The translations under genes and the position numbers were made by a program. From Paludibacteraceae bacterium (GTDB taxonomy: Bacteria > Bacillota_I > Bacilli_A > RFN20 > CAG-826), in the NCBI GenBank assembly GCA_963621535.1, contig CAVFEQ010000002.1, positions 15,362-79,361 of the forward strand: a stretch of DNA of 64,000 nt. The letters are read 5' to 3'. Numbering within the stretch: the stretch's first letter is position 1; the number at the start of each line of letters is the position of its first letter. Positions 4,078 through 40,946 of the stretch are shown here, piece after piece. The notes beneath the pieces are model-generated. The model ran no database searches, was not told where the DNA came from, and saw nothing but the letters and a program-made list of their open reading frames with translations.

Positions 4078-4275
4078 ATGACCACCCCTGGAAAGTACAT
4101 CAAAGAAGTTGGCAAAGAAGCCAAACGCGTTCGTTGGCCCAAGAGAGACAAGCTTGTTCCAATGATCGTTGTCGTGATCGCTATTTCCCTTTTCGCCGCA
4201 ATATTCCTTTCTTTGGAAGATTTAACCGCTGCTTCGATGATTAACCAGCTCAAAGCGGCTTTTGGAGGCAAATAA
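4078..4275 (+). CDS. secE: Preprotein translocase subunit SecE
   Basis: 65-aa ORF with the KEVGKEAKRVRWP motif followed by one TM helix. A strong RBS (AAGGAGGAAAG) precedes it, and it lies between rpmG and nusG. Confidence 0.85.
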   Translation: MTTPGKYIKEVGKEAKRVRWPKRDKLVPMIVVVIAISLFAAIFLSLEDLTAASMINQLKAAFGGK

Positions 4276-4278
4276 TTT

Positions 4279-4869
4279 ATGGCAAGCAACATTGGCGAAA
4301 AACATTGGTATATCGTCACCACCTACTCAATGCACGAATCGAAGACCGCTGAGAATCTTCGCAAGCGTATCGAGACGATGAACATGCAGGATTACATCAT
4401 GCGCGTCCTCGTCGCTGAGCAAGAAGTTCCAGTCCTTGATAAGAACGGCCTTCCCTCAACCGTAACGGATAAGGAAACCGGTGAGGTTAAGCCCAAGACC
4501 AAGATGAAGAATCTTTATCCTGGCTATATCTTCATCGAAATGGTCATGACGGATGAGTCCTGGTACATCGTCCGTAATACTCCAGGTGTCACCGGCATCG
4601 TCGGTTCTTCCGGCGGCGGACAGAAGCCTGCTCCGGTTGCCCGTGAAGCAATCGAACCCGTCCTTAAGAGGATGAACATCATCGATGAGGATATGTATGC
4701 CCGTTATGCCGTGGGCGATCAGGTCCGCATCATTCACGGGGCTTTCGAAGGAACCGAAGGAATCATCACCTTCATCGACAAGGACACCCACGCCGTCCGC
4801 ATCGAAACCACCTTCTTCGGCCGTGTCACACCGGTTGACGTTGAATTCTCCGAAATCGAGAAAATCTGA
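4279..4869 (+). CDS. nusG: Transcription termination/antitermination factor NusG
   Basis: 196-aa ORF with an NGN domain (HWYIVTTYSMHE...PGYIFIEM) and a C-terminal KOW motif (GDQVRIIHGAFEGTEGII). Confidence 0.95.
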   Translation: MASNIGEKHWYIVTTYSMHESKTAENLRKRIETMNMQDYIMRVLVAEQEVPVLDKNGLPSTVTDKETGEVKPKTKMKNLYPGYIFIEMVMTDESWYIVRNTPGVTGIVGSSGGGQKPAPVAREAIEPVLKRMNIIDEDMYARYAVGDQVRIIHGAFEGTEGIITFIDKDTHAVRIETTFFGRVTPVDVEFSEIEKI

Positions 4870-23077: not shown

Positions 23078-23108
23078 AGCTCACCTTCGAAAGGGGGTGA
23101 GCTTTTTT
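23078..23108 (+). terminator. Rho-independent terminator after rpoC
   Basis: AGCTCACC pairs perfectly with GGTGAGCT. The stem extends inward to a GAAA tetraloop and is followed by T6. Confidence 0.85.
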
Positions 23109-23113
23109 GCGTC

Positions 23114-23138
23114 AAAAAGCCCGCAAAAACGAAAAATA
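23114..23138. repeat. 25-nt repeat AAAAAGCCCGCAAAAACGAAAAATA (candidate left att-like copy)
   Basis: Matches 29218-29242 at 24 of 25 positions and 38701-38725 at 23 of 25, all in direct orientation. A 16-nt core also occurs inverted at 10988-11003. Confidence 0.85.
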
Positions 23139-23430
23139 TCTCTATTTGGCCGGGGGCGGTATTTGAGAAATTGCATCTTTTTTCCCTTTCACTGTGCGGA
23201 GAAAAGAAGCGCCTTTTGCGGACTCACTTTTTGAAACTTTTTTGTTTTTCCTCCTTCCAATGGCTAGATGAAAAAGCTGGCGGTTTTGGTGAATAGATTT
23301 TTCTGAAAACGAAAAAGCCACCATCGGCACGACAGAGTTATCAATTTTGGTATGGCAATTCGATAGACAAATTAGAGATAAAGTGATATAAAATGTTAAA
23401 CAGTGTTATTTAGGAACAAAGGTGCAAAAT

Positions 23431-23637
23431 ATGAAAATGGATTATGCTAGTGCTTTAAGGCAACTAAGGGCGGAATTGAACCTGTCCCAACATGAATTTG
23501 CTGATTATCTACATGTGTCATTCGTTTCGGTCAACCGCTGGGAAAACGGGAAATTCGAGCCTACAGTCCTCGTGAAGGAAAGGCTTAAGAAATTATTTAA
23601 GCAGTACAACATAGAATTGGAGGTAATGGATCAATGA
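23431..23637 (+). CDS. XRE-family HTH protein (controller-like), first gene of the AT-rich operon
   Basis: Carries an HTH_3 signature (LRQLRAELNLSQHEFADYLHVSFVSVNRWENGKFEP). Its stop overlaps the next start (ATGA). ATG 23431 is preferred over the ORF-track GTG 23422. Confidence 0.8.
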   Translation: MKMDYASALRQLRAELNLSQHEFADYLHVSFVSVNRWENGKFEPTVLVKERLKKLFKQYNIELEVMDQ

Positions 23638-24296
23638 AAGGCCAAGTGAAATCCAAACAAAGAGTCAGAGATCATGGGGAGGTTTTCACCAACGAGCGCG
23701 AGGTGAACGCCATGCTAGATTTAGTAAAGGATGAAACCGAAAACATCGAATCCACGTTTTTGGAACCAGCCTGTGGCGATGGCAACTTTCTTTCAGAGAT
23801 TATTCGTAGAAAACTCGCAATTGTAAAAGAAAGATACGGCAAGAATTTGGAAAATTACGAAAAGTATTCAATCGTTGCCGTCTCCTCGGTATACGGAGTT
23901 GAATTGCTGAGGGATAACGTTATTGCCTGCATCGACAGGCTGTACAATATATGGAACGATGAATACTCGGAGATTGCAAAAAAGCAAATCAACAAAGACG
24001 TCCAGAATGCGTGCAAATATATCCTCAAGAAAAATATATTGTGCGGAGATGCTTTGACCTTGAAGCAAGAAAATGGCGAACCGATCATCTTCGCGGAATG
24101 GAAGCTCGTCAGTGGTTCTATGCTCAAAAGACGTGATTATCGATTGGATCAGATTTTGGAAGCACAAAACGATACTCCGAGCCTATTTTGGTTCGCAGAT
24201 GGTTGGGAATATGATGAAGAGACAAAGGAATATATCCCTGCTCCAATAAAGGAATTCCCTTTAACCGATTTCAGAAGGGTACAAGATTATGAATAA
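23634..24296 (+). CDS. DNA-methylase-like protein with a SAM-binding motif I but no catalytic motif IV
   Basis: 220 aa. It has [17 protein letters not shown], the canonical motif [13 protein letters not shown] (nt 23763-23792), and NILCGDAL with FAEW, which resemble the GNSL and FDW elements of Eco57I/PglX-type enzymes. No NPPY or DPPY is present anywhere. Confidence 0.65.
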
Positions 24297-28712: not shown

Positions 28713-28840
28713 GAGCATGCCAGGTAGCGTTCCGTTTTTGTAGGTAAGCCCCCCAATTGGTATGCCGAAATGATTTGACGTGCTCCCTTTCGGGATCATT
28801 TTTGGCGATAGTTTGCCCGCTGAAAGAAAAGGAGAAACGA

Positions 28841-29047
28841 ATGGAAGAAATCATCAGCGATGCCTTGGCCACCGGCAAAAGGGTGACCACCGTCTACAGC
28901 CCGGAGCTGAAGTTGGCCCTGTTCCGGGAGTATGTGTTCGACGGCCAGGAAGCTTATGACGCGATAATCTCCTGCCTTGGCGCCGAACGCAAAACTGTAT
29001 TTACTCTGCAAACTAGCGGGCCTAAGTCTACGCAAAGTCTACTTTAA
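28841..29047 (+). pseudogene. Possible N-terminal fragment of an IS3-family (IS150-like) OrfA
   Basis: A 68-aa ORF after AAAAGGAGAAA. The stretch VYSPELKLALFREYVFDGQEAY resembles the YSxEFKLxxVxEYLxGxxSY start of IS150-type OrfA. The reading frame runs into the 260-bp repeat and stops there. Confidence 0.3.
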
Positions 29048-29258
29048 AGTCTACTTTTAGTCTACTTTTAGGGTCTTTTCTTCTACTAGATAAATGGAGG
29101 CTGCAATATTCTTCCTAGTCTTTCTCTCCGGTAGCAGGCAAAGGAGAAAGTGAGTCTATATCACGGATGTGGCCTCTATAGCGATCATCCTGATTCTGGG
29201 TTGCGTTCTATGGAGCGAAAAAGGCCGCAAAAACGAAAAATAACCCTGTTTTGCAGGG
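28999..29258. repeat. 260-bp repeat element, copy 1
   Basis: Matches 38482-38741 at 259 of 260 positions. It contains four AGTCTAC heptamers at 29035, 29046, 29058 and 29069, internal hairpins, the 25-nt motif and a terminal hairpin. Confidence 0.95.
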
Positions 29259-29267
29259 TTATTTTTT
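29236..29267. terminator. Long A/T-rich hairpin at the end of repeat copy 1 (bidirectional terminator)
   Basis: AAAAATAACCCTG pairs with CAGGGTTATTTTT around a TTTTG loop, with T or A runs on both sides. It lies downstream of the convergent PAP2 gene. Confidence 0.6.
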
Positions 29268-29335
29268 GTTATTAGCTCTTGTGAAACGGTTGGAAATCCT
29301 TGTTTATTTAAGGATTGCGTTTCGCCACTTAATAA

Positions 29336-30178
29336 CTATTTTGCAGCCTCAGCGTCTTTTCTCTTGTAGAACCTTGCTTTAAGGCAATAAAAAGCAAGCA
29401 ATGTAATAAAGGCACCTGTGGTAACGTCTGAAGCAAAATGGGCGCCGGCAACAACGCGCGAAACCATGACGATTATTAGCCAAAGGTAGCAAAGGACGCT
29501 CGCGATGATTTCGCCGGTTTTCTTTTTGCTGCAGAACTCAACAGGCAAAAGAGATAAGACAATTACGCAGGCGGCATTGGCTGAGTGACCAGAAGGGAAT
29601 GAGTCTGAACCGCTCCACCAATTGGGTGAATACCATGGAAAGAAGCCATCATAAGGCGGCAATAAATCCCTCATGCGTGGACGGCCCCAGGCGTATTTAA
29701 GCGCATAGGTGACTGCTTGCTCTATCAAGATCGTAAGGATGGCGATGATGGCGACTCGTTTCAAAGAACTTCCGTAACGTTTGCTAAGAGCTCGCGCTCC
29801 GAAGAACGAGCCAGCTGCAATCGGCAACATAAACGAGAATCCGTAAATAAGCGCTCCTTTGACCTTTAAGTAGTTCAAAACAAAGAACACAAGAAGGAAA
29901 GAATAGGCCAGAATCCCGACAACCGATATGACGGCGATAAAGATGCTCAAGAATTTTTTCTCTTTTTGCCGCGTGAAGAAAAGGATATTGAAACCGAGTA
30001 AAGCAATAAGAGTGAACGGGACTTCTCCAATCGCCTCCAATATTTTGCCGAATAAGCTCTCTTTGTTATATAAGGCTATCGAGATATCAAGATCAAAGAA
30101 AGCAAAGTAGATCATCAGCGAAATATAAAGAACAACGCCAACAATCGCCGGTATGAATTTGACTATCTTTTTACTCAT
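29336..30178 (-). CDS. PAP2-family membrane phosphatase
   Basis: Carries the three PAP2 motifs: KYAWGRPR, PSGHS and SRVVAGAHFASD, with multiple TM helices. ATG 30178 overlaps the rhamnosidase stop by 8 nt. Confidence 0.85.
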   Translation of the reverse strand: MSKKIVKFIPAIVGVVLYISLMIYFAFFDLDISIALYNKESLFGKILEAIGEVPFTLIALLGFNILFFTRQKEKKFLSIFIAVISVVGILAYSFLLVFFVLNYLKVKGALIYGFSFMLPIAAGSFFGARALSKRYGSSLKRVAIIAILTILIEQAVTYALKYAWGRPRMRDLLPPYDGFFPWYSPNWWSGSDSFPSGHSANAACVIVLSLLPVEFCSKKKTGEIIASVLCYLWLIIVMVSRVVAGAHFASDVTTGAFITLLAFYCLKARFYKRKDAEAAK

Positions 30179-32753
30179 TTTCAGAAGCTCCGCTTTCCTC
30201 AATCTCAAAGACATAGTCGCCCTCATCTAGGGTTTTTGCTATTCCGGGCAAAACGATTTTCGCTTGCGTGTTTGAGGGTATGGATATCTCGTAAATGGTT
30301 TTCTTCTCTTCCTTTTGCCACGCGCTTTTCACCAAGCCGTATTGGCTCAAATATTCGAATCTTGCATAAGTGATGTTTCCGCCTGGTCTCGGGGCGATAA
30401 CAAAATTGTTTTCCCCTGCGATTTTCACGCCGCACATTTCTTTAAACAGCCATTCGCATACCGCGCCTTTGCTGTAATGGTTTAGCGAGCCAATGCCTTT
30501 ATCGCTTGTCGAATTGCCTTCCCAAGCTTCCCAGATGGTGGTCGCGCCATTTTTCATCATATAGAGCCATCCGGGCTTTTCTTCGTTCTCCAGGAGCTTA
30601 TAAGCGTAGTCAATGTCGATATCCTCCAAAACGTAAAGAATCATCGGGGTGGATAGAAAACCGGTACCAACCCGCCAATTGTAATGATCAAGAGCTTTGA
30701 TGAGTCTTTTTTTAGCGAATTCGGTTTGCTGTTCATCGAGCAAGCCCATATAAAGCGGCCGCACGAGCTTGGCCTGTCTATCGGTATCTAGGCTATATTT
30801 TGGCTTAGAGACGTATTCTTGATAGGCCTTCTTTGCCCCTTCGCTGTATTCTTTGACTTTTTTAAGGCGCTGATCGTTTTCTTTATGGAGTATTTCCGAT
30901 GCTTTTAGGACTCGATGAAGGGTGAAATAGGTATAAGCGGTTGATTCTTCTGGATGAGGGCTAGCGAAGTCATACCATTTGAAGGCCATGACGTCGTTAG
31001 GCTCTGCCCATTCGCCGTATGATTGTCCGCAGTTTACGAAGTACTTGCGGTTTTTAAACGAAATGTGAACCGGTTTGGCGTAAATCCCTCCCCACTTTCC
31101 AGCTCTTTTTATCATGAAGCCCGCGTAGTTCATGATGCCTTCGAAATGTTCTTGAAGCAGCCTATCATCGCCATACACCTCATAAAAATTCAAAGGGATA
31201 TAGACGCCTGCGCATGCCCAGCCTACCGACCCATTCATTGTCCACATGAACCAATCTTCATGGGCGTATGGCGCGATTTGCGGGAGACGCCCGCTCTTCC
31301 ACTGCCTATCGAAAATGTCGCGGACGTGCTTACGGGCAAAAGCGGCATAGTCCACCATGTAGGAAGCGGTTGGAAAGAAAATCTCGCTGTCGCCAGTCCA
31401 GCCCATTCTCTCACGGGTCGGGCAATCGGAAGGGATATCGGTCGAATTGCTTTTAAGCGACCACATCGTGCTTTGATAGAGCTTGTTTATCAAAGGGTTT
31501 GAGCATTCGAATTCGGAAACTGAAGAGAAGCCGCTATAGACGGCAATTGCCGTGAAATCGTCTTTTTCAAAAGGAATGTCGGTATCGATTTGCGCATAGC
31601 GGAAACCGCCATAGAAAAACTTAGGCTTGTAGTCGTTTCGTCCTTCCTTGCATAGATAATCAATTTCCTGAAGAGGCGACTTTTTGCCTTTGAATGTGCA
31701 TTGAATGTTTTCCAAAGAGAGCTCGCCGTCTTTGTCGAGCATCTCCCCAAGAGTGATGTGAATGCGCTCACCTAGATGTGCCATTAAGGAAAAGGAGATG
31801 TACCCTGAGATATTTTGCTCAAATTCGAGAACCTTTTTGCCTTTGGGGGTGATGATCAGTCTGATTGGCTTAAATTTTTCGTTTTCGGTGACACTAAAAT
31901 TATTAGAAGAAGTCAGTTTTGCGGGTTTTTTGATGGTTTTGGCTTTTTTGTCGTAGGATGGGCATTTCCTCGCATCAACCTTTTCTCCATCTTTGAGATC
32001 GGCAAAAATTATGGGCCCATCGTTTGACCAACTCCAACTATTGTCAGTGGCGAGCATGAACTTTGTCCCATCGTTTTTGGTTATCTCAAGCTGAGCTAAG
32101 AATTGCGTCTGCTTCCCATAGGTGTTCACTCTGCCTTTCGCGCCGCTTGATCCGCGATACCAGCCATCTGCAAGCTCCACGCACAATGAGTTTTTGCCAG
32201 AAACAACGAGGTCTGTTACATCATATGTTTGATATTGGACTCTTTTTCTATAGTCAAACGATCCTGGGGCGAAGATAAAATCGCCGCATCTTTCGCCGTT
32301 TATCCTGGCTTCGTATAGCCCACGGGCGCTGATATAAAGCCTTGCTGCTTTGACGGCGGAGATTTCAAAGTCTTTTTTGAAGCAATCGACGGGGTAGCGG
32401 TCCTTTCCGTTGGCCTTGTAATTGCCGCTTATCCATTGTGCACGCCAATCGTTTTCCTTGAGGAGGCCTAGTTCAAAAGAGTTATATTCGCTCCATTCCC
32501 CCGGTTCGTCGTTCTCATCGTAAAGGCGAATCCTGAAATCGACATGCGATCTTGATTGGAGCGGGAAAAAGAAGTCAAAGTGCATGCTTTGGCTTTTGTT
32601 TTTGTGTGTGCGTTTCTCCCCGTCGATAGCGAATTCGATTTCGTAGGACGTTTGCTTTTTCCCTCCTAGGCAATTCCAGCTGATACGAGGGTTTTTCACG
32701 TCGATGCCTGAGGGGTTTGTCAGGTATTCTGTTTTGATGTTTGTTGCTTTCAT
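30171..32753 (-). CDS. Alpha-L-rhamnosidase (GH78)
   Basis: 860 aa from ATG 32753, which follows GGAGG. It has an N-terminal NPRISW motif and the GH78 hallmark DCPTRERMGWTGD. Confidence 0.9.
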   Translation of the reverse strand: MKATNIKTEYLTNPSGIDVKNPRISWNCLGGKKQTSYEIEFAIDGEKRTHKNKSQSMHFDFFFPLQSRSHVDFRIRLYDENDEPGEWSEYNSFELGLLKENDWRAQWISGNYKANGKDRYPVDCFKKDFEISAVKAARLYISARGLYEARINGERCGDFIFAPGSFDYRKRVQYQTYDVTDLVVSGKNSLCVELADGWYRGSSGAKGRVNTYGKQTQFLAQLEITKNDGTKFMLATDNSWSWSNDGPIIFADLKDGEKVDARKCPSYDKKAKTIKKPAKLTSSNNFSVTENEKFKPIRLIITPKGKKVLEFEQNISGYISFSLMAHLGERIHITLGEMLDKDGELSLENIQCTFKGKKSPLQEIDYLCKEGRNDYKPKFFYGGFRYAQIDTDIPFEKDDFTAIAVYSGFSSVSEFECSNPLINKLYQSTMWSLKSNSTDIPSDCPTRERMGWTGDSEIFFPTASYMVDYAAFARKHVRDIFDRQWKSGRLPQIAPYAHEDWFMWTMNGSVGWACAGVYIPLNFYEVYGDDRLLQEHFEGIMNYAGFMIKRAGKWGGIYAKPVHISFKNRKYFVNCGQSYGEWAEPNDVMAFKWYDFASPHPEESTAYTYFTLHRVLKASEILHKENDQRLKKVKEYSEGAKKAYQEYVSKPKYSLDTDRQAKLVRPLYMGLLDEQQTEFAKKRLIKALDHYNWRVGTGFLSTPMILYVLEDIDIDYAYKLLENEEKPGWLYMMKNGATTIWEAWEGNSTSDKGIGSLNHYSKGAVCEWLFKEMCGVKIAGENNFVIAPRPGGNITYARFEYLSQYGLVKSAWQKEEKKTIYEISIPSNTQAKIVLPGIAKTLDEGDYVFEIEESGASENE

Positions 32754-32770
32754 GGGAGCCTCCAAACGCT

Positions 32771-34636
32771 TTATTTGGTTAAACCAGCAAGCTCGGCCTG
32801 AATCTTCTCGTAGTATTCCTGCCCTTTCTTTCTCTCGATTTCCCACTTCGCTTCATCACGGGCGAGCTTTTTGGCCTCTTTTTCCTTGCGTTTAGCGATT
32901 TGCTCAGCGCTGAGCGAGGCTAATTTAGCGGCTTTCTTTTCTTCGGTTTTAGCTTTTTTCGCCTCTTCTTTTTCTTCTTTCAGTTTTTGCTTGGCCTCGT
33001 TTTTGGCTTTTTTCTCCGTTACTTTGTCGTTGTGTTTTTTGACCTCTTCTTCGTAGTTGAGTCCTTTTTTCTCGCATTTGATTTTTAGGTTCTCTAAATA
33101 AGCGCGCTCGTTTTCTAAGAGATATCTTTCTTCGTCTTCCTTGGCTTTAACTTCCGGCGGAATCCAATTCTCGCCTTTAGCCTCTGCACTTGCTTTTTGC
33201 CGTTCCCTGATAATCGAAAGCTTCTTATTGGCGGTTTTCTCGGTGTTCAAAAACATCAGCAGGACGGCCAGGGCGAGCCCGGTGAATACCTCCAAGCCAA
33301 CAAAGGAGAACGTGATTGCGTTTTTAACGGCGTCTGATTGGACATAGGCCACGGTTTCGCCAAGCTCATTGATTGTCGGCGCCTTATACCCGCTGCCTGC
33401 TAGCAACGCATTGAAAAGGCCTGTGGTTACGCCGATCAAAGCCGTGGCGATGACGTTATAGACCGACATTGAAAGTCCGTCGCATCTTACCCCGCTCTTC
33501 CATTCAAGGTGGTCGAGAGTGTCGGCAAACAAAGCCATAAAGACATAAGAGCAAGGCAATCCGCCGATGTTTTTGATAAATTGACCCGTCAAGACGATAA
33601 CCATATTGGTCGGCGCCATCCAGCAAATGGCGCTGCCGATGGCGTAGAGAACGAATCCCCACATCGTGACATTCCTCTTTCCAAAACGCTTGGCAAGCGG
33701 CCAGACTAAGAAAATGCCTATGCCCATCGGGATTCCGCCGATGACTGAGACAAGCATCTGGGTCGTTCCGTCGTTATAGCTGCCCAAAACGTAATTGCAG
33801 TAGTAGACAAGGCCAAGGTTTTTCAAAGAAGAGCCGACGGTGTAGATAAAGAAATATGCGAAAATAATCCACATGTATTTGTCGCTGAAGACGATTTTGA
33901 GCTGTTTGGAGAAAGGCACCGCTTTCGTTTCGCCCTCCCCTTGCTCTTCGCTGATTCTCTCTTTTGTGAAGTAATATTCAAGAAGCGTCAGAGGGAGAGC
34001 GAGAATGCTCAAAACGCACATAACGATGATCCAAAGCGATTTATTGACGCCAAGAATAGGCATGATCACAACCGGGAAAAGAAGGGCGACCAATATCCCG
34101 CTCATCATGATGGAGGCGATTTGGTTGAAAACGGAAAGCCCGCCCCTCTGAATGGTGTTTCTCGTGGAAAGAGGAACCATGAGGTTGTGGCTCATGTTGT
34201 AGATGGTGAAGGCGAAAGAGTAGAAGAGGTTATATGAAACCATGACCCAGATAACTTGAACGGTCTCGTTCGCGTTTGGCACCAGGAAGAGAAGAACGCC
34301 GGTAATCGCGACTAGAGGAGCGGAAAGCAAGATCCAGGGTCTAGCCTTCCCTTGCTTCGTTTTTGTTCTATCGATGATGTAGCCCATGATGACGTTGGTA
34401 ATGGCGTCGATGATCTTGGAAACGATCGGGAAGATGGTCAAAAACAATCCGCCCCAAACGCTTGTCAAACCCAATACGTCCGTGTAATACACATTCAAAT
34501 ACGTGGCGAGAACGGCGTTTAGCAAAAGCGCTCCGCATGGCCCAAGCAAATACCCAAGCCATTTTTCCTTCCCCGTCACGTTGCGAGAATGAATCCTGCT
34601 GTCGAAGAGTTTCCCGTTCAATGCTTTGTTTTTCAT
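32771..34636 (-). CDS. GPH-family glycoside:cation symporter with a 156-aa K/E-rich C-terminal extension
   Basis: A 12-TM MelB/GPH-like core ([17 protein letters not shown]...) is followed by a tail from EKTANKK... to ...ELAGLTK rich in K, E and A (nt 32771-33241). Confidence 0.85.
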
Positions 34637-34638
34637 GT

Positions 34639-37099
34639 CTAGTTCTCCTTTTTCTCATCTTTAGGCAGTTTCGGGGCTTTAACCGAAACGCAAAAATCTT
34701 TAATGCCTTTCACAAGGTGGCCGTTTGCTAAGTCAACCATGCCCTGCGCGAAATTATAGGGAAAGCTTTTCCCTGCCGACATTGACATCGTGATAATTGA
34801 ATTGCTCTCCAAGATGCGTTTGAGAAAATAGGCTCCCTTGATTTTATTATCGCGTTCTTGGCCCTCAGGAAGTTTCTTGGCTTTCTTCATGTCTTTTTTC
34901 GCGACGCCGAGGACGGCATTGAATAAGATTTTTCCAATCGGCGTCTGCTGAAGATCGGTGAACCTGCTTTCCATTCTAATTGGTTTTCGTTTTGGCTCTT
35001 GCGGTATTTTCAATCCGGACATTTCCTCAAAAACATCGTTGGTCATGCGCAAAACTTCGCCAGCCCCATAAATGCGATTGATCTCTTGGGGATATGGAAC
35101 AGATGCTTTTTCTCCAGTGATGCTGAGGGTTTTGGAATCGATGACCGTTTCCGAATCGGAGCACAAATTAAAGAGATAGTCGCCGCTTTCTAGCACCCAG
35201 CGGTGTTCCTTTGCGTTCCAATAACGCAGATCGGCTTTCTTGATGCTTAAGGAAACGTTTTTTTCTTCGCCTTTTCTTAAATGCACTTTTTGGAACCCTT
35301 TAAGCTCACGTTTGGCTTTGAAGCAATCTGAACTCGGTGAGCTTACATAGATTTCGGCGACCTCAGCGCCATCGAAATCACCGACGTTCTTAATCGAAAA
35401 ACCAACAATGACTTCGTCGCGCTCTTCTTTGACGGAAAAGGAGGAATATTCAAATTTGGTATAGGATAAGCCGTATCCAAACGGATATCTGACTCTCTTA
35501 TTCGCGGTTAGATAATACCTGTAACCGACAAGAATCCCTTCTTTGTAAATCTCATTGATCCCTTTGCCGAAACTCTCTCCGAAAGGAACGTCTTCGTAAG
35601 AAAGAGGCCAACTTTCGGCAAGACGCCCAGAAGGGGTCTTTTCCCCATAAACCAGTTTCCATAACGCCTCACCCCCACCTTGCCCGGGCAAATACATATT
35701 CAAAATGGCGTTTACTTTGTCTTCAAACGGCAGTTCACATGGCGAGCCACCATACAAGATGACGGCAATCTTCTTCTTTAAGGGGAGCAGCACGTCGATT
35801 AGGGCTAATTGGTTTTTTGGCAGCGACATGCTTTCGCGGTCGCCTCCCTCGCTTTCTGAATAATCGGTAAGCCCGAGGAAGAGAAAAAGGGTCTCGTATT
35901 CTTCAGCGGCCTTCACCGCTTCATGAATCAGCTTTAAATCAACGTCATTTTCGTTTGCTTTATACCCTTTTCGATAAACGAAGTGGACGCCATGTTTTTC
36001 AAACGCCTTTTTCGGCGATGACAAAAACGTCGGATTTATCATCGAGCTTCCCGATCCTTGATAACGAGGCTTGTCAAAAAGCTCGCCGATCACGCATATC
36101 TTTTCGTCTTTTTTTTAGAGGCAAAACCCCGTTATTTTTCAAAAGGACCGCAGAATCGGCAGCAATTTCCTCCGCCAAAAGATGGTGAGATTCAAAATTG
36201 ACGTCGGTTTTGCGCTTATTTTGGTGCTTGCTCACCAGGTTAAGCACATTGCTTACGGCTTTATCTAAATCGGCCTGGCTGAGTATTCCGTTGTTTAAGC
36301 CATCGATTATCCATTTACGGCAGATGGGGGTGTCGCCAGGCATTTCCAGATCAACCCCGGCTTGGAGCATTTTGATGCGGTCGTGGGTGGCGCCCCAATC
36401 CGTGATAACAACCCCATCGAAGCCCCATTCTCCGCGGAGGACATCACTAAGCAGCGATTTGTTGTGGCAGCAATAAACGCCATTGATTTGGTTATATGCG
36501 CACATAAGACTTTCTGCGCGCCCTTCTTTCAATGCGATCTCGAAGGGCTTAAGGTAGATTTCGCGGATGGTTCGTTCGTCAGCGACGCTATTGCCCATAA
36601 AACGGAAATTTTCGCTGTTGTTCAAAGCAAAATGCTTTAAGCACGATGCAACGCCTTGGCTTTCTATGCCTTTTATCTCGAAGGCGGCGAAGGTTCCTGA
36701 TAAAAGCGGATCTTCGGAATAATACTCAAAGTTCCTGCCTCCTAAGGGATTTCTTTTTATATTCGTCCCTGGGCCCAAAACAACGTCAATTCCGTAATAA
36801 TTGCTCTCTTCTCCGATGGCTTTTCCAATTTTATAGGCATTTTCGGGGTCCCAGCTCGAGGCCACGGTGACAGCGGGAGGAAACGCGGTGGCTGGAAGGC
36901 TGCCAGTCACTCCGTTGTCGCCTTCCCCGTTTTGCACCCTTAATCCATGAGGCCCGTCTGACATTCGAATCGATTGGATGTTTAAACGCGGAACAGGATT
37001 GGTGTACATGAAATCGGTGCCCGCTACCAAAGCGGCTTTTTCCTCTTTCTTCAAATCGCTCAAAATTTTCAGTGCATCCATGAAAATGGTCTCCGCCAA
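34639..37099 (-). pseudogene. GH3 beta-glucosidase interrupted by a +1 frameshift in an A8 tract
   Basis: The N-terminal ORF (36074..37099) has SDGPHGLR, KHFALNNSE and ITDWGA. The C-terminal ORF (34639..36093) has PRYQGSGSS and a fibronectin-like end. Removing one A from A8 (T8 on the plus strand, 36109-36116) gives PLKKDEKICVIGELFDKPRYQGSGSS and one ORF of about 819 aa. Confidence 0.85.
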
Positions 37100-37165
37100 A
37101 AAGTTAAGACCATTATAGAAACAGGTTTAATGCTCCGTTGTACATTTGTTTTATTGATGATATAA

Positions 37166-38383
37166 ATGTTTTGTCTTTTTATGAAAAATATCGATTATTC
37201 ATATTTGGGCTCCCTGCTTGGCAATTTGTCAGGAGTCCCCATAAGGGTTTTTCGCGGCGAGAATCAAATCTTTTATTGCTCCATCGTCAAATTGCCAAAA
37301 GACCCGCTTGAGCCCTATTTGAAAAGGGTTCTCAGCAGCAAAAAACACATCGATTATTACATCACGCCTGCTTTTGATTACTACGGCATCGTTACGAGTG
37401 GACCAATCAAAATCGTCATAGGACCAACGCGCCAATCTCCGCTTTCAGATCAAGAAATCCGCGAGCAAGCCTTCGAGCTTGATGTCGAGCCGGAAGATTT
37501 GGAGGAATTTAAACTTGGCATCAAAAGCATCGTGCCAATGCCTTTTGTAAGCGTTCTTCAGATCCTGTGCGCGATCAACTATGTTCTGAACCATGAAAAG
37601 CTGACATTAGAAGACGTCACGATCGCCGAAAGCGCCCAAAAGGTCATGCAATCCGATTTGGAAACTCAAAAGGCAAATAAAAGCATCGACGGCGACCCTT
37701 TTTCTGAAGAGCATGAATTGCATAACACGATTTTCATTGAGCGAACAATCGCAAATATCGTGAGAAAAGGCGATACAGCCGCTCTTCGGCAATGGGCCAG
37801 CAGCGCTCCGGCGGTGAGAGCGGGTGTTTTGGCTAAAGATCAATTGAGGCAGATCAAAAACACGTTCATCGTAACCGCCACCATCGTTTCTAGGGCCGCA
37901 ATACGCGGCGGGATGGACGTTAATGAGGCTTTGTCCCTTTCTGATTCATATATTCAAAAATGCGAGTTTTTCACCAGCGTAGAAAGCATAATGAACCTTC
38001 AATTTAGGATGGTTTCCGATTACACCGAAAAAGTGGAGAGGCTTCGAAACAGCGGCTGCGCTTCGAAATTCGTAATTGAAGTCAGCAATTATGTACAGAA
38101 ACACATTTCCGAGCCCATAGACATCAAGGCTTTGAGCAAAGCGATGTATTTAAGCCGCTCTCGCTTCAGCACGAAGTTCAAGGAACAAACCGGAATGTCC
38201 CCAATCGATTTCATAACCAGAGAAAAAATAGAAGAAGCCAAAAGGCTTATAAAATACACAGACAAGCCACTTTCTTCGATTGGCGATTATTTGGGCTTCT
38301 CTTCCCAAAGCCACTTTTCCCGCACGTTCAAAAAACACACGGGCCTATCCCCGAATGAATATCGACTGAAGTACGCCGAGTAA
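37166..38383 (+). CDS. AraC-family transcriptional regulator
   Basis: 405 aa with a C-terminal double HTH_18 (SRSRFSTKFKEQTGMSPIDFITREKIEEAKRLI...FSSQSHFSRTFKKHTGLSPNEYR). An alternative start is ATG 37181. Confidence 0.85.
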   Translation: MFCLFMKNIDYSYLGSLLGNLSGVPIRVFRGENQIFYCSIVKLPKDPLEPYLKRVLSSKKHIDYYITPAFDYYGIVTSGPIKIVIGPTRQSPLSDQEIREQAFELDVEPEDLEEFKLGIKSIVPMPFVSVLQILCAINYVLNHEKLTLEDVTIAESAQKVMQSDLETQKANKSIDGDPFSEEHELHNTIFIERTIANIVRKGDTAALRQWASSAPAVRAGVLAKDQLRQIKNTFIVTATIVSRAAIRGGMDVNEALSLSDSYIQKCEFFTSVESIMNLQFRMVSDYTEKVERLRNSGCASKFVIEVSNYVQKHISEPIDIKALSKAMYLSRSRFSTKFKEQTGMSPIDFITREKIEEAKRLIKYTDKPLSSIGDYLGFSSQSHFSRTFKKHTGLSPNEYRLKYAE

Positions 38384-38481
38384 CGTGAATATTGTTGTTC
38401 TTTGTTTGCATGGCCCTGGCCTTTCCGATGCTTGCCTTAAAGTCGGCGATGGTTGGCCGTCCGCGGCGAAAGCAAAACTCC

Positions 38482-38741
38482 ATTTACTCTGCAAACTAGC
38501 GGGCCTAAGTCTACGCAAAGTCTACTTTAAAGTCTACTTTTAGTCTACTTTTAGGGTCTTTTCTTCTACTAGATAAATGGAGGCTGCAATATTCTTCCTA
38601 GTCTTTCTCTCCGGTAGCAGGCAAAGGAGAAAGTGAGTCTATATCACGGATGTGGCCTCTATAGCGATCATCCTGATTCTGGGTTGCGTTCTATGGAGCG
38701 AAAAAGGCCGCAAAAAAGAAAAATAACCCTGTTTTGCAGGG
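38482..38741. repeat. 260-bp repeat element, copy 2
   Basis: Matches 28999-29258 at 259 of 260 positions. The single difference is A at 38717 where copy 1 has C at 29034+200 (position 29234). Weaker similarity extends about 25 nt upstream of both copies. Confidence 0.95.
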
Positions 38742-38759
38742 CTATTAATCTTGTTTTGG

Positions 38760-40946
38760 TTAGGCTTTGTAAGAACAAATGTTGGAAATCAGATAAGATT
38801 TATCAATGCTTTCTGAGGCGGAAGAGAGATGGATCTTCACGTTTTCTTCCCCTGCTAATTGAGCGGAAGTAAGAGAGGCGAAATAGGTCTTGCTTTCGTT
38901 TTCGTTGGTGATGAAGACCCCGGCTTTGTTGATGTCGAAGCTCCAGTTCTGATAGGAATGAAGCATTTCCTCGCGGGTCATCTTGCTTTCGCTTGCTGCG
39001 GCGGGGCAATTTTTCCCTAGATTAGTTTCTTCCCCTGCTTTCACCCAAGCGATTTCATCTTCCCCGGCGGCGGTGCCAAGGCTGAAACGGAGGCCTTCGC
39101 CGTTTTCGAAGTATTTAGAGAAGTCGATTGGGTCAAGAGCGAGGATGCTTTCTGCTTCCATTGATTCGCCGCTGCAAGTGATCAAGGCCCCGTCTTTCGA
39201 CCCTTGCACCGCGAGTTTCCCGGCGGTTTTGCTGGTCGCGTTTTCTAAAGAGAAACCTTCAAGGGAGGAGAAGTCGATGACTTGTTTCTCCGCTTTCACG
39301 ATGTAGGGTTTGCCAAACCAGTGCAGGCGGCTCGTCCCCTTTTGCAAGGTACATGCGATCCCTTCTTCCCCGCTTGCTTGAGCATCAGTCAACTCGACTT
39401 CTGCGCTGGGGTTGCTAAGGCAGGTAAAGGGGGTTTCGCTGAGGATATTTTTCGCATAGGCAGTCACTTTGTCATCGCTTCCAAGCTTAAAGGAGATCAG
39501 GGAGTTTCTTAAGGACGAGGCGACTTGGATGGAGGAATCGCTTCCATTGGACAGAAGCTTTTTGCCGTTGATAGCGACGTAATTGTAGGTATTGAAAGAA
39601 CCTGCTTCCATGTAGATGGTCTCGCCTTTTGCAAGAAGGGATTTGAAGTTGATTTTGGGCATGGTGAAACCGTTTTGGTCATCGCTGCCCGCGTGAATCA
39701 TGATTCCGTCGTTTATCGTCCTGGCGAAATCCGCTTCCAGCTTATCCAGCGCCTCAGCATTCCCTCCGTATTGACCCCAGGTCGCTACGTTGAAGCTGCT
39801 GCGGATGGAAGTGGAGGCTTTTGCTCCGCCAGAAAAGGTGAAGTCAGCGGAGTTGAGCTCATTCACGATTTCCGTCTTGGCCGTTCCATAGGTATAACGC
39901 GCGGTAAGAAGAGTGTCGCCTTCTAAGGGGCTTCCGAAGTCGAACTTGCCCTCGCTTGAATACCATCCTTCAAAATCAACCGAGTCATAATATTCATCCA
40001 AGGTTTTGTTGGGGGCGCTTGGCTCGGCTAGCTTAGTGCCCGCGTCTTGGGTGATTGGATCGATGGAGGTTGTCCCATTCGTGTCAAAGGTCACCTTGCA
40101 CTGGATGAGAGAGGAAGAGACGACTAGGCTCACGTCCTTTTCCTGGTTCTTGATGAGATAATAGCCGTCCGCGTCTTTTTCTAAGACGAGGTCCCCGATT
40201 TTCACCGCGTCGATTTGGTGATACTTAACCGGGGTCACCTTGAATCTGATTTCTTTTGAGTAGGCGACCTTATCCAAATCGATGGAAGGATCAGAGAGCT
40301 CGATGCTGAAGCCATCCCCGGAAGGCAAGGCGATCTTATAGGTCTCTTCTTCGGTCGATACGTTGACGAAAGAGGAGGATTTGACGGACTTGATCGTGTA
40401 TACCCCGTCCCCATCTGGATTTAATGGATCGTCTTGGTAGACGACTTTGGTGATCTTGTTATGGGGGTTCGCGGTCAAAGTGAAACGGAAGTCGCTGCCA
40501 TAAGGGATCTTTTCCGCGTCGATGCTGTCTAAGGGGTTCATCGCGAAGCTGCCGGAAGAGAAGATCAGACGATAGGTGTTTAGTGCGGAGGAACAGGCGA
40601 TTGTGAGGTTAGAATTTACATTGGAGATGGTGTAGACGCCATCATCATCGCTTAGCAAAGAATAGCCGCTATCATCGATGAGCACCTCATTGACGCTATA
40701 GCCTTCTGAGGGGGTGATGGTGAAGCGGAAATCCTTCCCCTGCTCCACTTTGCTTGGATCATAGCCATCTAAGGCGGCGATGGAGCAGTGTTCATCCGCG
40801 GAATAAGAGATCGTGAAATACGTTTTCTCTACCTCGCTAGTTGAATCAGAGCCTTCTGGCGTGGGGTTTATGTTCCCGCAAGAAGGAAGAATCAGCATCG
40901 CGCAGGCGAGGCTAGCCAAGGCTAGGACGTTTGTTTTTTTGCTCAT
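38760..40946 (-). CDS. Surface lipoprotein with divergent InlB B-repeats and a Listeria-Bacteroides repeat
   Basis: Lipobox ILPSC. Three repeats of about 75 aa are present (YFTISYSAD..., YRLIFSSGS..., YKIALPSGD...), then VTFDTNGT...FEGWY. ATG 40946 follows GGAGG. Confidence 0.75.
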   Translation of the reverse strand: MSKKTNVLALASLACAMLILPSCGNINPTPEGSDSTSEVEKTYFTISYSADEHCSIAALDGYDPSKVEQGKDFRFTITPSEGYSVNEVLIDDSGYSLLSDDDGVYTISNVNSNLTIACSSALNTYRLIFSSGSFAMNPLDSIDAEKIPYGSDFRFTLTANPHNKITKVVYQDDPLNPDGDGVYTIKSVKSSSFVNVSTEEETYKIALPSGDGFSIELSDPSIDLDKVAYSKEIRFKVTPVKYHQIDAVKIGDLVLEKDADGYYLIKNQEKDVSLVVSSSLIQCKVTFDTNGTTSIDPITQDAGTKLAEPSAPNKTLDEYYDSVDFEGWYSSEGKFDFGSPLEGDTLLTARYTYGTAKTEIVNELNSADFTFSGGAKASTSIRSSFNVATWGQYGGNAEALDKLEADFARTINDGIMIHAGSDDQNGFTMPKINFKSLLAKGETIYMEAGSFNTYNYVAINGKKLLSNGSDSSIQVASSLRNSLISFKLGSDDKVTAYAKNILSETPFTCLSNPSAEVELTDAQASGEEGIACTLQKGTSRLHWFGKPYIVKAEKQVIDFSSLEGFSLENATSKTAGKLAVQGSKDGALITCSGESMEAESILALDPIDFSKYFENGEGLRFSLGTAAGEDEIAWVKAGEETNLGKNCPAAASESKMTREEMLHSYQNWSFDINKAGVFITNENESKTYFASLTSAQLAGEENVKIHLSSASESIDKSYLISNICSYKA

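Follow-up and report, generated by a model that had tools for sequence, protein, structure and literature searches.

A duplicated intergenic element with a phased AGTCTAC array and a predicted terminator in Candidatus Enteromonas

Two copies of one intergenic element

The window analyzed here is a 64,000-nt stretch from a genome assembly (1.84 Mb, 115 contigs, 94% complete) of the genus Candidatus Enteromonas, a group of uncultured gut Bacilli. It contains a 260-bp element twice as direct repeats, at positions 28999-29258 (copy 1) and 38482-38741 (copy 2), both on the plus strand. As an earlier note on this DNA had reported, the copies are 259/260 identical; the sole mismatch is a C at 29234 versus an A at 38717. 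The right end of copy 1 is joined to the left end of a glycoside cassette, and copy 2 is located between the AraC gene and the 3' end of an operon gene encoding 735 aa. The outer flanks of the near-identical copies are unrelated, again in agreement with the note. From left to right the element contains an array of AGTCTAC heptamers, a middle segment and a 3' terminator. We read it as an intergenic mosaic that is neither mobile nor coding and whose two working parts are the array and the terminator, and give this reading a probability of roughly 60%.

Relatives were searched for in about 80 other species genomes of the same genus and order. Two full-length copies were found in the whole genome and none in the relatives, and the element had no match in plasmid and phage collections. 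The matches in relatives cover only two separate pieces, element positions 24-71 (array) and 220-260 (3' motif and hairpin). This genome-wide count had been proposed in the earlier note, which also said that its candidates, a noncoding RNA gene and a mobile element, would fail if the element existed as these two copies only and reflected a recent segmental duplication. That is essentially what was found. Just left of the copies, similar but diverged DNA had been noticed, and it proved real yet short: a plus-strand block at equal offset (28980-28998 and 38463-38481) shares 15/17 bases (shuffle p ~0.003). This suggests that the homology was once slightly longer, or that a conversion tract ended here.

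The mobile element proposed was a miniature inverted-repeat transposable element (MITE) or the end of a transposon with a terminal binding array. Near-identical copies with unrelated outer flanks fit such an origin, insertion-sequence fragments lie nearby, and the phased array is reminiscent of Tn7 or Mu ends. However, the low copy number and the empty plasmid and phage searches oppose it, and neither terminal inverted repeats nor a target duplication was found. Instead, the flanks show graded similarity, and the sole end-to-end likeness is a recurring CTGCAAA word (~11/15). Both arrays are direct, not inverted, on the plus strand; the copies have no transposase or recombinase gene between or next to them, and there is no transposase partner with the array. 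In addition, the right two-thirds of the element is ordinary orthologous intergenic DNA in sister genomes. Both forms of the proposal are already close to refuted, and we consider them very improbable.

The state of the locus in three sister assemblies bears on the order of events. In L236, a GH3 gene and the AraC gene are followed by 99 nt, the complete element with its array, and the start of the 735-aa gene, with 97.7% identity over the whole contig. In L237, the right 187 nt of the element lie behind the same 735-aa gene and an insertion-sequence end abuts at the equivalent of 29072/29073. The L232 contig, in which the right part of the element is present as well, ends within it. All three carry the element at the copy-2 site only, ~2-4% diverged and with A at the variable base, and relative to them the two window copies have three derived bases in common. 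From these three observations, copy 2 is ancestral, and copy 1 was produced by duplication or conversion once this lineage had separated from the sister relatives. The private C of copy 1 at 29234 matches a related motif downstream of rpoC, which is described below. A suggestion that L237 lacks the array was withdrawn, since that contig ends within the insertion sequence adjoining the element, and the array may lie beyond.

The middle segment (~145 nt; 29073-29217, with its copy-2 counterpart at 38556-38700) is native non-coding DNA downstream of the 735-aa gene. It is ~96% conserved in L237 and L236 behind that same gene, and no homologue was found elsewhere in any collection searched. It includes three degenerate heptamers, CTTCTAC at 29080, AGTCTTT at 29117 and AGTCTAT at 29153.

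The terminator module and its family

The 3' 45 nt of each copy is a predicted Rho-independent terminator for a converging minus-strand operon. The module takes the form AAAAA..CCGCAAAA-N16-TTTTGCAGG and was recovered in both copies by a terminator scan and a covariance model. In copy 1 (29210-29270, minus strand), it lies at the end of the PAP2-GH78-MFS-GH3 operon. In copy 2 (38693-38746, minus strand), it lies at the end of a nine-gene glycan operon whose last gene stops at 38760. Minus-strand hairpins followed by a T-run were found at 29266-29236 (13 pairs) and 38746-38722 (10 pairs), 70 nt and 14 nt past the stops of the converging genes, which are the features expected of Rho-independent terminators. 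On this strand, the hairpin and the U-tract are wholly within the repeat in both copies; a plus-strand U-tract is present only in copy 1 and lies outside the repeat. The earlier note had correctly described a terminal 13-bp A/T-rich hairpin (29236-29266 in copy 1) with the repeat boundary, 29258, inside its 3' arm. It had also credited the element with its own terminator. A terminator does stand at the end of the element, but it is not the element's own, being complete on the minus strand, where it would serve the converging operons.

This terminator belongs to a family. The consensus from eleven aligned instances is AAAAA..CYGCAAAA-N16-TTTTGCRG..TTTT with a variable inner hairpin. Compensatory changes were seen in the inner hairpin, which is 77% paired, and only 1/500 shuffles scored as high for covariation. 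The outer GCAAAA/TTTTGC pairing, at 93% paired, is near-invariant and therefore gives no evidence of covariation. The covariance model found 23 hits in this genome and 9-18 in each of five sibling species, compared with 0-6 in other members of the genus. Most copies are located between convergent genes or behind a co-oriented gene. Further members in this genome (G000) are dispersed palindromes at C25:3826-3886, C93:193-253 and 2610-2670, C30:736-796 and C32:10155-10215, among others. The family consists of lineage-specific terminator-like palindromes that are confined to one subclade of the genus.

A third, partial copy of the 3' motif lies at 23094-23154 on the plus strand, just after the rpoC terminator, with the hairpin half missing; species G019 and G012 have an intact motif and hairpin at this post-rpoC position. 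The window thus has three co-oriented copies of a 25-nt motif. Because they belong to the dispersed terminator-like family, they are to be seen as closely related members of it rather than as demonstrated attachment (att) sites. Telling such a sequence-conserved family apart from apparent att sites is of some general use.

Another possibility is that the element is a small gene of its own. A weak extended -10 near 29102-29110 could give rise to a small RNA of ~150 nt; alternatively, the element could encode a small membrane peptide, possibly toxin-like, under control of the array; the candidate peptides are 24 aa (MASIAIILILGCVLWSEKGRKNEK) and 19 aa (MEAAIFFLVFLSGSRQRRK). Small open reading frames (ORFs) that are hydrophobic and then basic do exist, a Shine-Dalgarno-like AAAGGAG is sequestered in a hairpin, and plus-strand RNA from 29090-29275 folds at z = -3.7. 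However, this z-score is due to the terminator hairpin and drops to -0.55 when the hairpin is left out, and the middle segments, with folding z-scores of -0.55 and +0.09, fold no better than shuffles. A promoter scan found no promoter-like site on either strand of either copy, and a plus-strand transcript would meet a U-tract only in copy 1. Rfam gave nothing at the gathering score and, at the E-value threshold, only terminator-driven sub-threshold hits. Together these results speak against the noncoding RNA gene that had been proposed.

The coding version fares similarly. The start codons lack a properly spaced Shine-Dalgarno sequence, and no credible ribosome-binding site precedes any ORF of the element. 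The longest frame has a different end in each copy, so the earlier statement that no conserved ORF is present was borne out. The C-terminal 'KGRKNEK' of a candidate is the translated terminator motif, which recurs in non-coding contexts, and the small ORFs had no hits in Pfam or NCBIfam. Lastly, the sisters differ from copy 2 at ~5/260 positions. The element is under no stronger constraint than its flanks, because this divergence matches that of the flanking DNA. A small gene at this position is therefore improbable.

The AGTCTAC array and Schlafen genes

The array consists of four AGTCTAC heptamers built as units of 7 + 4-5 nt on the plus strand. In copy 1 it spans 29025-29065, with starts at 29025, 29036, 29048 and 29059, and in copy 2 it spans 38508-38548, with starts at 38508, 38519, 38531 and 38542; sister L236 has it as well. 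The spacing of 11, 12 and 11 bp given in the earlier note was correct for both copies, whereas its range for copy 1 (29035-29075) was shifted 10 nt to the right. AGTCTAC occurs 8 times in the window, every time inside the two copies, and shuffled sequences are expected to have 2.6 sites (0/100 reached 8). With four exact AGTCTAC at this spacing, the array has the form expected of a binding array for the Schlafen proteins described below, namely at least three direct repeats of a 6-8-nt word at a 10-13-bp phase.

We scanned one genome per prokaryotic species with the pattern AGTCTAC-N4-5-AGTCTAC-N4-5-AGTCTAC and found at least 116 loci. A gene of ~430 aa with SLFN_AlbA_2, HATPase_c_4 and a C-terminal winged helix-turn-helix (wHTH) domain adjoins the array in 19/116 loci among the matches listed. 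The geometry is fixed: 20-45 nt separate the array from the start of the gene, which points away from it, and on the strand of the gene the repeat is GTAGACT. Many of these COG2865 loci have a second co-oriented array after the stop codon. The hosts belong to several phyla and included Oscillospiraceae, Lachnospiraceae, Spirochaetales, Bacillales, Mollicutes, Alistipes, Mailhella, Succinatimonas and one Enteromonas species (G079). The heptamer is unchanged across them while protein identity spans 44-95%.

In this genus, paralogues of the protein come with phased arrays of their own at the equivalent position, each with a different word (ATGAACT, CGTGGAAT, GTGTAAGAA or GTACACT). Two of these are in the genome studied here, on C42 with ATGAACT x4 and on C84 with CGTGGAAT x3-5; those with GTGTAAGAA or GTACACT are elsewhere in the genus. 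In this small sample, the array type follows the predicted recognition helix, 'SLxGVKK' going with xTxxACT words and 'GT(T/S)RxS' with GTG-type words. Because of the co-occurrence in constant geometry, the paralogue-specific arrays and the match with the helix, the AGTCTAC array is most likely a docking site of the pSlfn HisKinase-HTH (COG2865) protein itself, a prediction from comparative sequence data. The phased heptamers are thus best read as a multi-site binding array, as originally suggested, but the transposase or recombinase then named as binder is less likely than a Schlafen/ATPase/winged-helix protein. TAGACT-N17-TAGACT resembles a -35/-10 pair, from which we infer that the array would lie in the promoter of the gene.

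The composition 'HisKinase-HTH', to which these proteins belong, accounts for 19.2% of 5,930 prokaryotic Schlafen (pSlfn) proteins, according to the available text of a recent paper (Nat Microbiol 2026, PMC13056530). There, pSlfn proteins are described as phage-defence nucleases, with defence shown for other compositions, and that text makes no mention of the arrays. A keyword search of the literature returned no published account of the array-pSlfn pairing in the material it covered, and PADLOC 2023 has no model that matches the pSlfn HisKinase-HTH protein.

At the locus studied here, the array is an orphan, because the cognate gene was not found in this assembly, where even the closest homologues reach 42-43% identity only and carry arrays of other types, and no remnant of it was found in the window. 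An array without its gene probably does little alone. We considered whether the middle segment could be a decayed 3' end of a pSlfn gene, and this was rejected because blastx and BLASTP gave nothing.

Identical or similar arrays were seen in several other settings. A 47-nt stretch including the spacers is identical in assemblies L047 and L059, and in L059 the array directly follows the stop codon of pSlfn. In both (L047, CAVKAR010000060.1, 980-1672; L059, CAVHTL010000082.1, 2-488), the array adjoins a protein of 78-90 aa that looks winged-helix-like by eye. The other side of the array holds the pSlfn 3' end in L059 and three ORFs in L047 that are IS66-type-like by eye. L059 comes from the same assembly as L235, a carrier of the glycoside cassette. 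Orphan arrays of 3-4 repeats were also found in a conserved intergenic region of three Enteromonas species (L020, L021 and L022, at G021:C8, G030:C11 and G032:C14). They lie ~370 nt upstream of genes for a 220-aa Rex-like and an 886-aa AdhE-like protein, as judged by eye from the N-terminal sequences, and these species have no close homologue of the AGTCTAC-linked protein.

Viral contigs gave further arrays. The array AGTCTACTCTTAGTCTACTTTCAGTCTAC is identical in eight IMG/VR contigs (L186, L191, L195, L196, L198, L202, L204 and L210). In the three contigs inspected, it occupies a non-coding gap; a small helix-turn-helix-like gene and a gene for a 418-aa ParB-like protein (by eye) are a few hundred to ~1,200 nt away, and no Schlafen gene was found near it. 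The viral contigs with AGTCTAC arrays had no pSlfn gene. This viral array may be a phage operator or an iteron. Exact-word array scans of JGI metagenome contigs had no matches.

In the genome under study, two other Schlafen/ATPase/wHTH genes are bracketed by direct repeats that are ~90% identical. On C16 the repeats are ~275 nt long and end in AGGGCTCATG x3 (G000:C16:21415-21720 and 23420-23727), and on C27 they are ~116 nt long and end in ATTGCGC x4 (G000:C27:2580-2693 and 4175-4287). The second repeat precedes an SbcCD-like operon on C16 and a DUF4143 ATPase gene on C27, as if it wired the neighbour to the same regulator.

The cassette, the rearranged locus and comparison with known systems

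The glycoside cassette between the copies (29249-38417) encodes, by Pfam, PAP2, a GH78 rhamnosidase, an MFS_2 symporter, a split GH3 and an AraC regulator, and it appears to be horizontally mobile. Over 29249-38415 it is 94% identical to contig C61 of species G080 and to assembly L233, and 89% identical to L235. The 3' ends of rpoC in this genome and G080 are only 80% identical. In G080, L233 and L235, the cassette has a different chromosomal context each time and no element at either end. Because cassette identity is 94% against 80% for rpoC and there are at least three contexts, the data point to a recent horizontal transfer of this 9.2-kb rhamnoside/glucoside cassette. GH3 was called intact in L233 (813 aa) and L235 (826 aa), so the homopolymer split is not common to these relatives. 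The left cassette junction lies in the hairpin loop TTTTGCAGGG, and the right junction is 65 nt short of copy 2. AraC, PAP2 and the restriction-modification nuclease had no record in exact look-ups.

In sibling species G019, the order is rpoC, terminator, motif and hairpin, two genes, and then the orthologue of the 735-aa gene with its operon. By comparison with this order, ~15.6 kb has accreted here between rpoC and the operon, made up of a restriction-modification islet and the glycoside cassette. This raises the possibility that the element or its 25-nt motif is a recombination site at which both blocks were inserted in tandem behind rpoC, the heptamers being arm-type sites for a recombinase acting in trans. 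The three co-oriented motif copies do bound the two islands, and in G012 two copies of the motif behind rpoC enclose an insert of 1.7 kb with a single gene. Furthermore, the left cassette junction falls exactly in the hairpin loop, a similar TTTGCATGG is found at the right end, and in G020 the end of an AraC gene is also paired with an AGTCTAC array. On the other hand, neither island has an integrase or recombinase gene within it or nearby, and the ~23 copies of the motif family are mostly unrelated to islands. The junctions after rpoC and at the cassette fall at different points of the motif, so there is no constant core, and the similarity between the cassette ends is 9-10 nt long, with a chance probability estimated at roughly 0.04. 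The cassette also occurs in other genomes with neither element nor motif, and the genes to which the heptamer is linked are those for pSlfn proteins rather than recombinases. We therefore regard site-specific insertion as unlikely.

The DNA left of copy 1 is rearrangement debris. An insertion-sequence end remnant of 36 nt (28725-28760, plus strand) carries the multi-copy end GGTAGCGTTCCGTTTTTGTAGGTAAGCCCC, which closes six contigs of this assembly (G000 C7, C24, C27, C38, C66 and C72); in sister L237, it is a copy of this insertion sequence that has inserted into the element itself. Next to the remnant, a second insertion-sequence-like fragment of ~190 nt (28759-28949, plus strand) contains the start of an OrfA-like gene and gives a 68-aa ORF reading into copy 1. 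Paralogues of the fragment were found at C79:1470-1660 (92%) and C25:19017-19206 (88%), and it had no Pfam or NCBIfam hit. Three other identifications were dropped. The 68-aa ORF was proposed as a relative of the small wHTH proteins of L047 and L059, and blastx and BLASTP gave nothing. The left flank of copy 1 was compared to the AraC 3' end, which gave 23/31 in DNA and no protein support. The right flank, proposed as a remnant of the 735-aa gene, reached a shuffle p of 0.02 only, and this DNA is part of the cassette and conserved in G080.

On the mosaic reading, the events would be as follows. Copy 2 would be the original, behind the 735-aa gene, and copy 1 would have arisen recently in this lineage by duplication or gene conversion, probably during the rearrangements that placed the 9.2-kb cassette and the insertion-sequence fragments between rpoC and the operon. 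The terminator part would stop the glycoside operon at copy 1 and the nine-gene glycan operon at copy 2, both on the minus strand. The array part would be a predicted docking array for a specific Schlafen/ATPase/winged-helix protein that is absent here. Because the copies are 260-bp direct repeats, RecA should be able to excise the cassette as a 9,483-bp circle with one element copy. Such repeats around a horizontally transferred carbohydrate cassette would make it easy to lose or move in these uncultured gut Bacilli.

Several observations weigh against this account. The orphan arrays are intact and identical in both window copies, and orphan arrays are retained in three other Enteromonas species without the protein. 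Their persistence hints at a role independent of the cognate gene. The cognate gene could also be unassembled, because the assembly is 94% complete. In G020, five AGTCTA(C/T) heptamers (L034, G020:C116:1183-1237) lie 185 nt downstream of an AraC orthologue that is 54-56% identical. An array was nearby in 2/14 AraC homologue loci fetched from the genus, our own genome counted, with the same heptamer in both, and this link between AraC and the array is left unexplained. Finally, the assembly graph fits equally well with a chromosome that has one element copy plus a free 9.5-kb circle.

The last point can be taken further. The assembler could have joined one chromosomal copy (insertion-sequence debris, element, 735-aa gene) with a free or strain-specific 9,483-bp circle of element and cassette. 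The 260-bp exact repeat exceeds the k-mer size, contigs of this assembly end 55 nt into a multi-copy insertion sequence, and all four junctions fit either topology. L236 runs unbroken through its element and may thus have one copy. However, the contig passes both copies with the variable base phased to each right flank, and the integrated junction of AraC, element and 735-aa gene was confirmed independently by the L236 assembly. A joining artifact therefore seems quite improbable, and the element and its anatomy stay real under either topology.

If the persistence of the orphan arrays is taken as functional, gene-less array modules could be reusable sites at which cassettes are swapped, a defence gene having been replaced here by a sugar cassette while the arrays were kept. 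The modules that normally bracket a Schlafen defence gene would then act as portable homology or as protein-organized sites, and the intact orphan arrays would still recruit incoming pSlfn proteins or shape local transcription. We consider this a long shot. If true, it would mean that a Schlafen defence gene was exchanged for a sugar-utilization cassette able to loop out as a 9.5-kb circle. On the mosaic reading, which we prefer, the element by itself is unremarkable, an intergenic module that was recently duplicated within the locus, and of modest interest. Its value is that it provides a clear example of an array without its gene, and so extends what is seen of the pairing between bacterial Schlafen/ATPase/winged-helix proteins and phased arrays of their own.

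Compared to the pSlfn HisKinase-HTH loci, the element has the same AGTCTAC heptamer at the same 11-12-bp phase as is found beside SLFN_AlbA_2, HATPase_c_4 and wHTH genes. It differs in that no pSlfn gene is next to the copies and a 9.2-kb metabolic cassette is bracketed instead. The bracketing itself has a parallel in the pSlfn paralogues of the same genome, which lie between 116-275-nt direct repeats with their own arrays. Solo long terminal repeats, the single repeats left after recombination between direct repeats, are similar in that a flanking-repeat module outlives its gene. Unlike these, the element is present as two copies with unrelated cargo between them, and loss of a pSlfn gene at this site would have to be assumed.

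The 3' part resembles bidirectional intrinsic terminators and repeats like the repetitive extragenic palindromic (REP) and DNA uptake (DUS) sequences. It has an A-tract, a GC-containing palindrome and a T-tract between convergent genes, and, as in REP/DUS-like repeats, a conserved word, CYGCAAAA...TTTTGCRG, is common to many copies. In contrast to those, the inverted word occurs both outside and inside the variable inner hairpin, which allows two alternative pairings, and the family is limited to one subclade of the genus. The arrangement of the locus is like Campbell-type duplications and att-flanked islands, since a horizontally acquired block is flanked by direct repeats and the conserved rpoC is followed by tandem blocks. 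However, there is no integrase, the repeated 260 bp are ordinary DNA of this locus, and elsewhere the cassette is found without them.

In form the array is like OmpR/PhoB- and SARP-type operators such as Pho boxes, heptameric direct repeats with 4-nt spacers (e.g. PMC5930380). Those operators are read by winged helices and overlap the regulated promoter. The AGTCTAC unit, with its 7 nt and an A/T-rich spacer of 4-5 nt, likewise places one site on each helical turn. The predicted binder differs in having a Schlafen nuclease and a GHKL-type ATPase, not a receiver or BTA domain, and the arrays in the window lie between convergent genes, where there is no promoter to serve.

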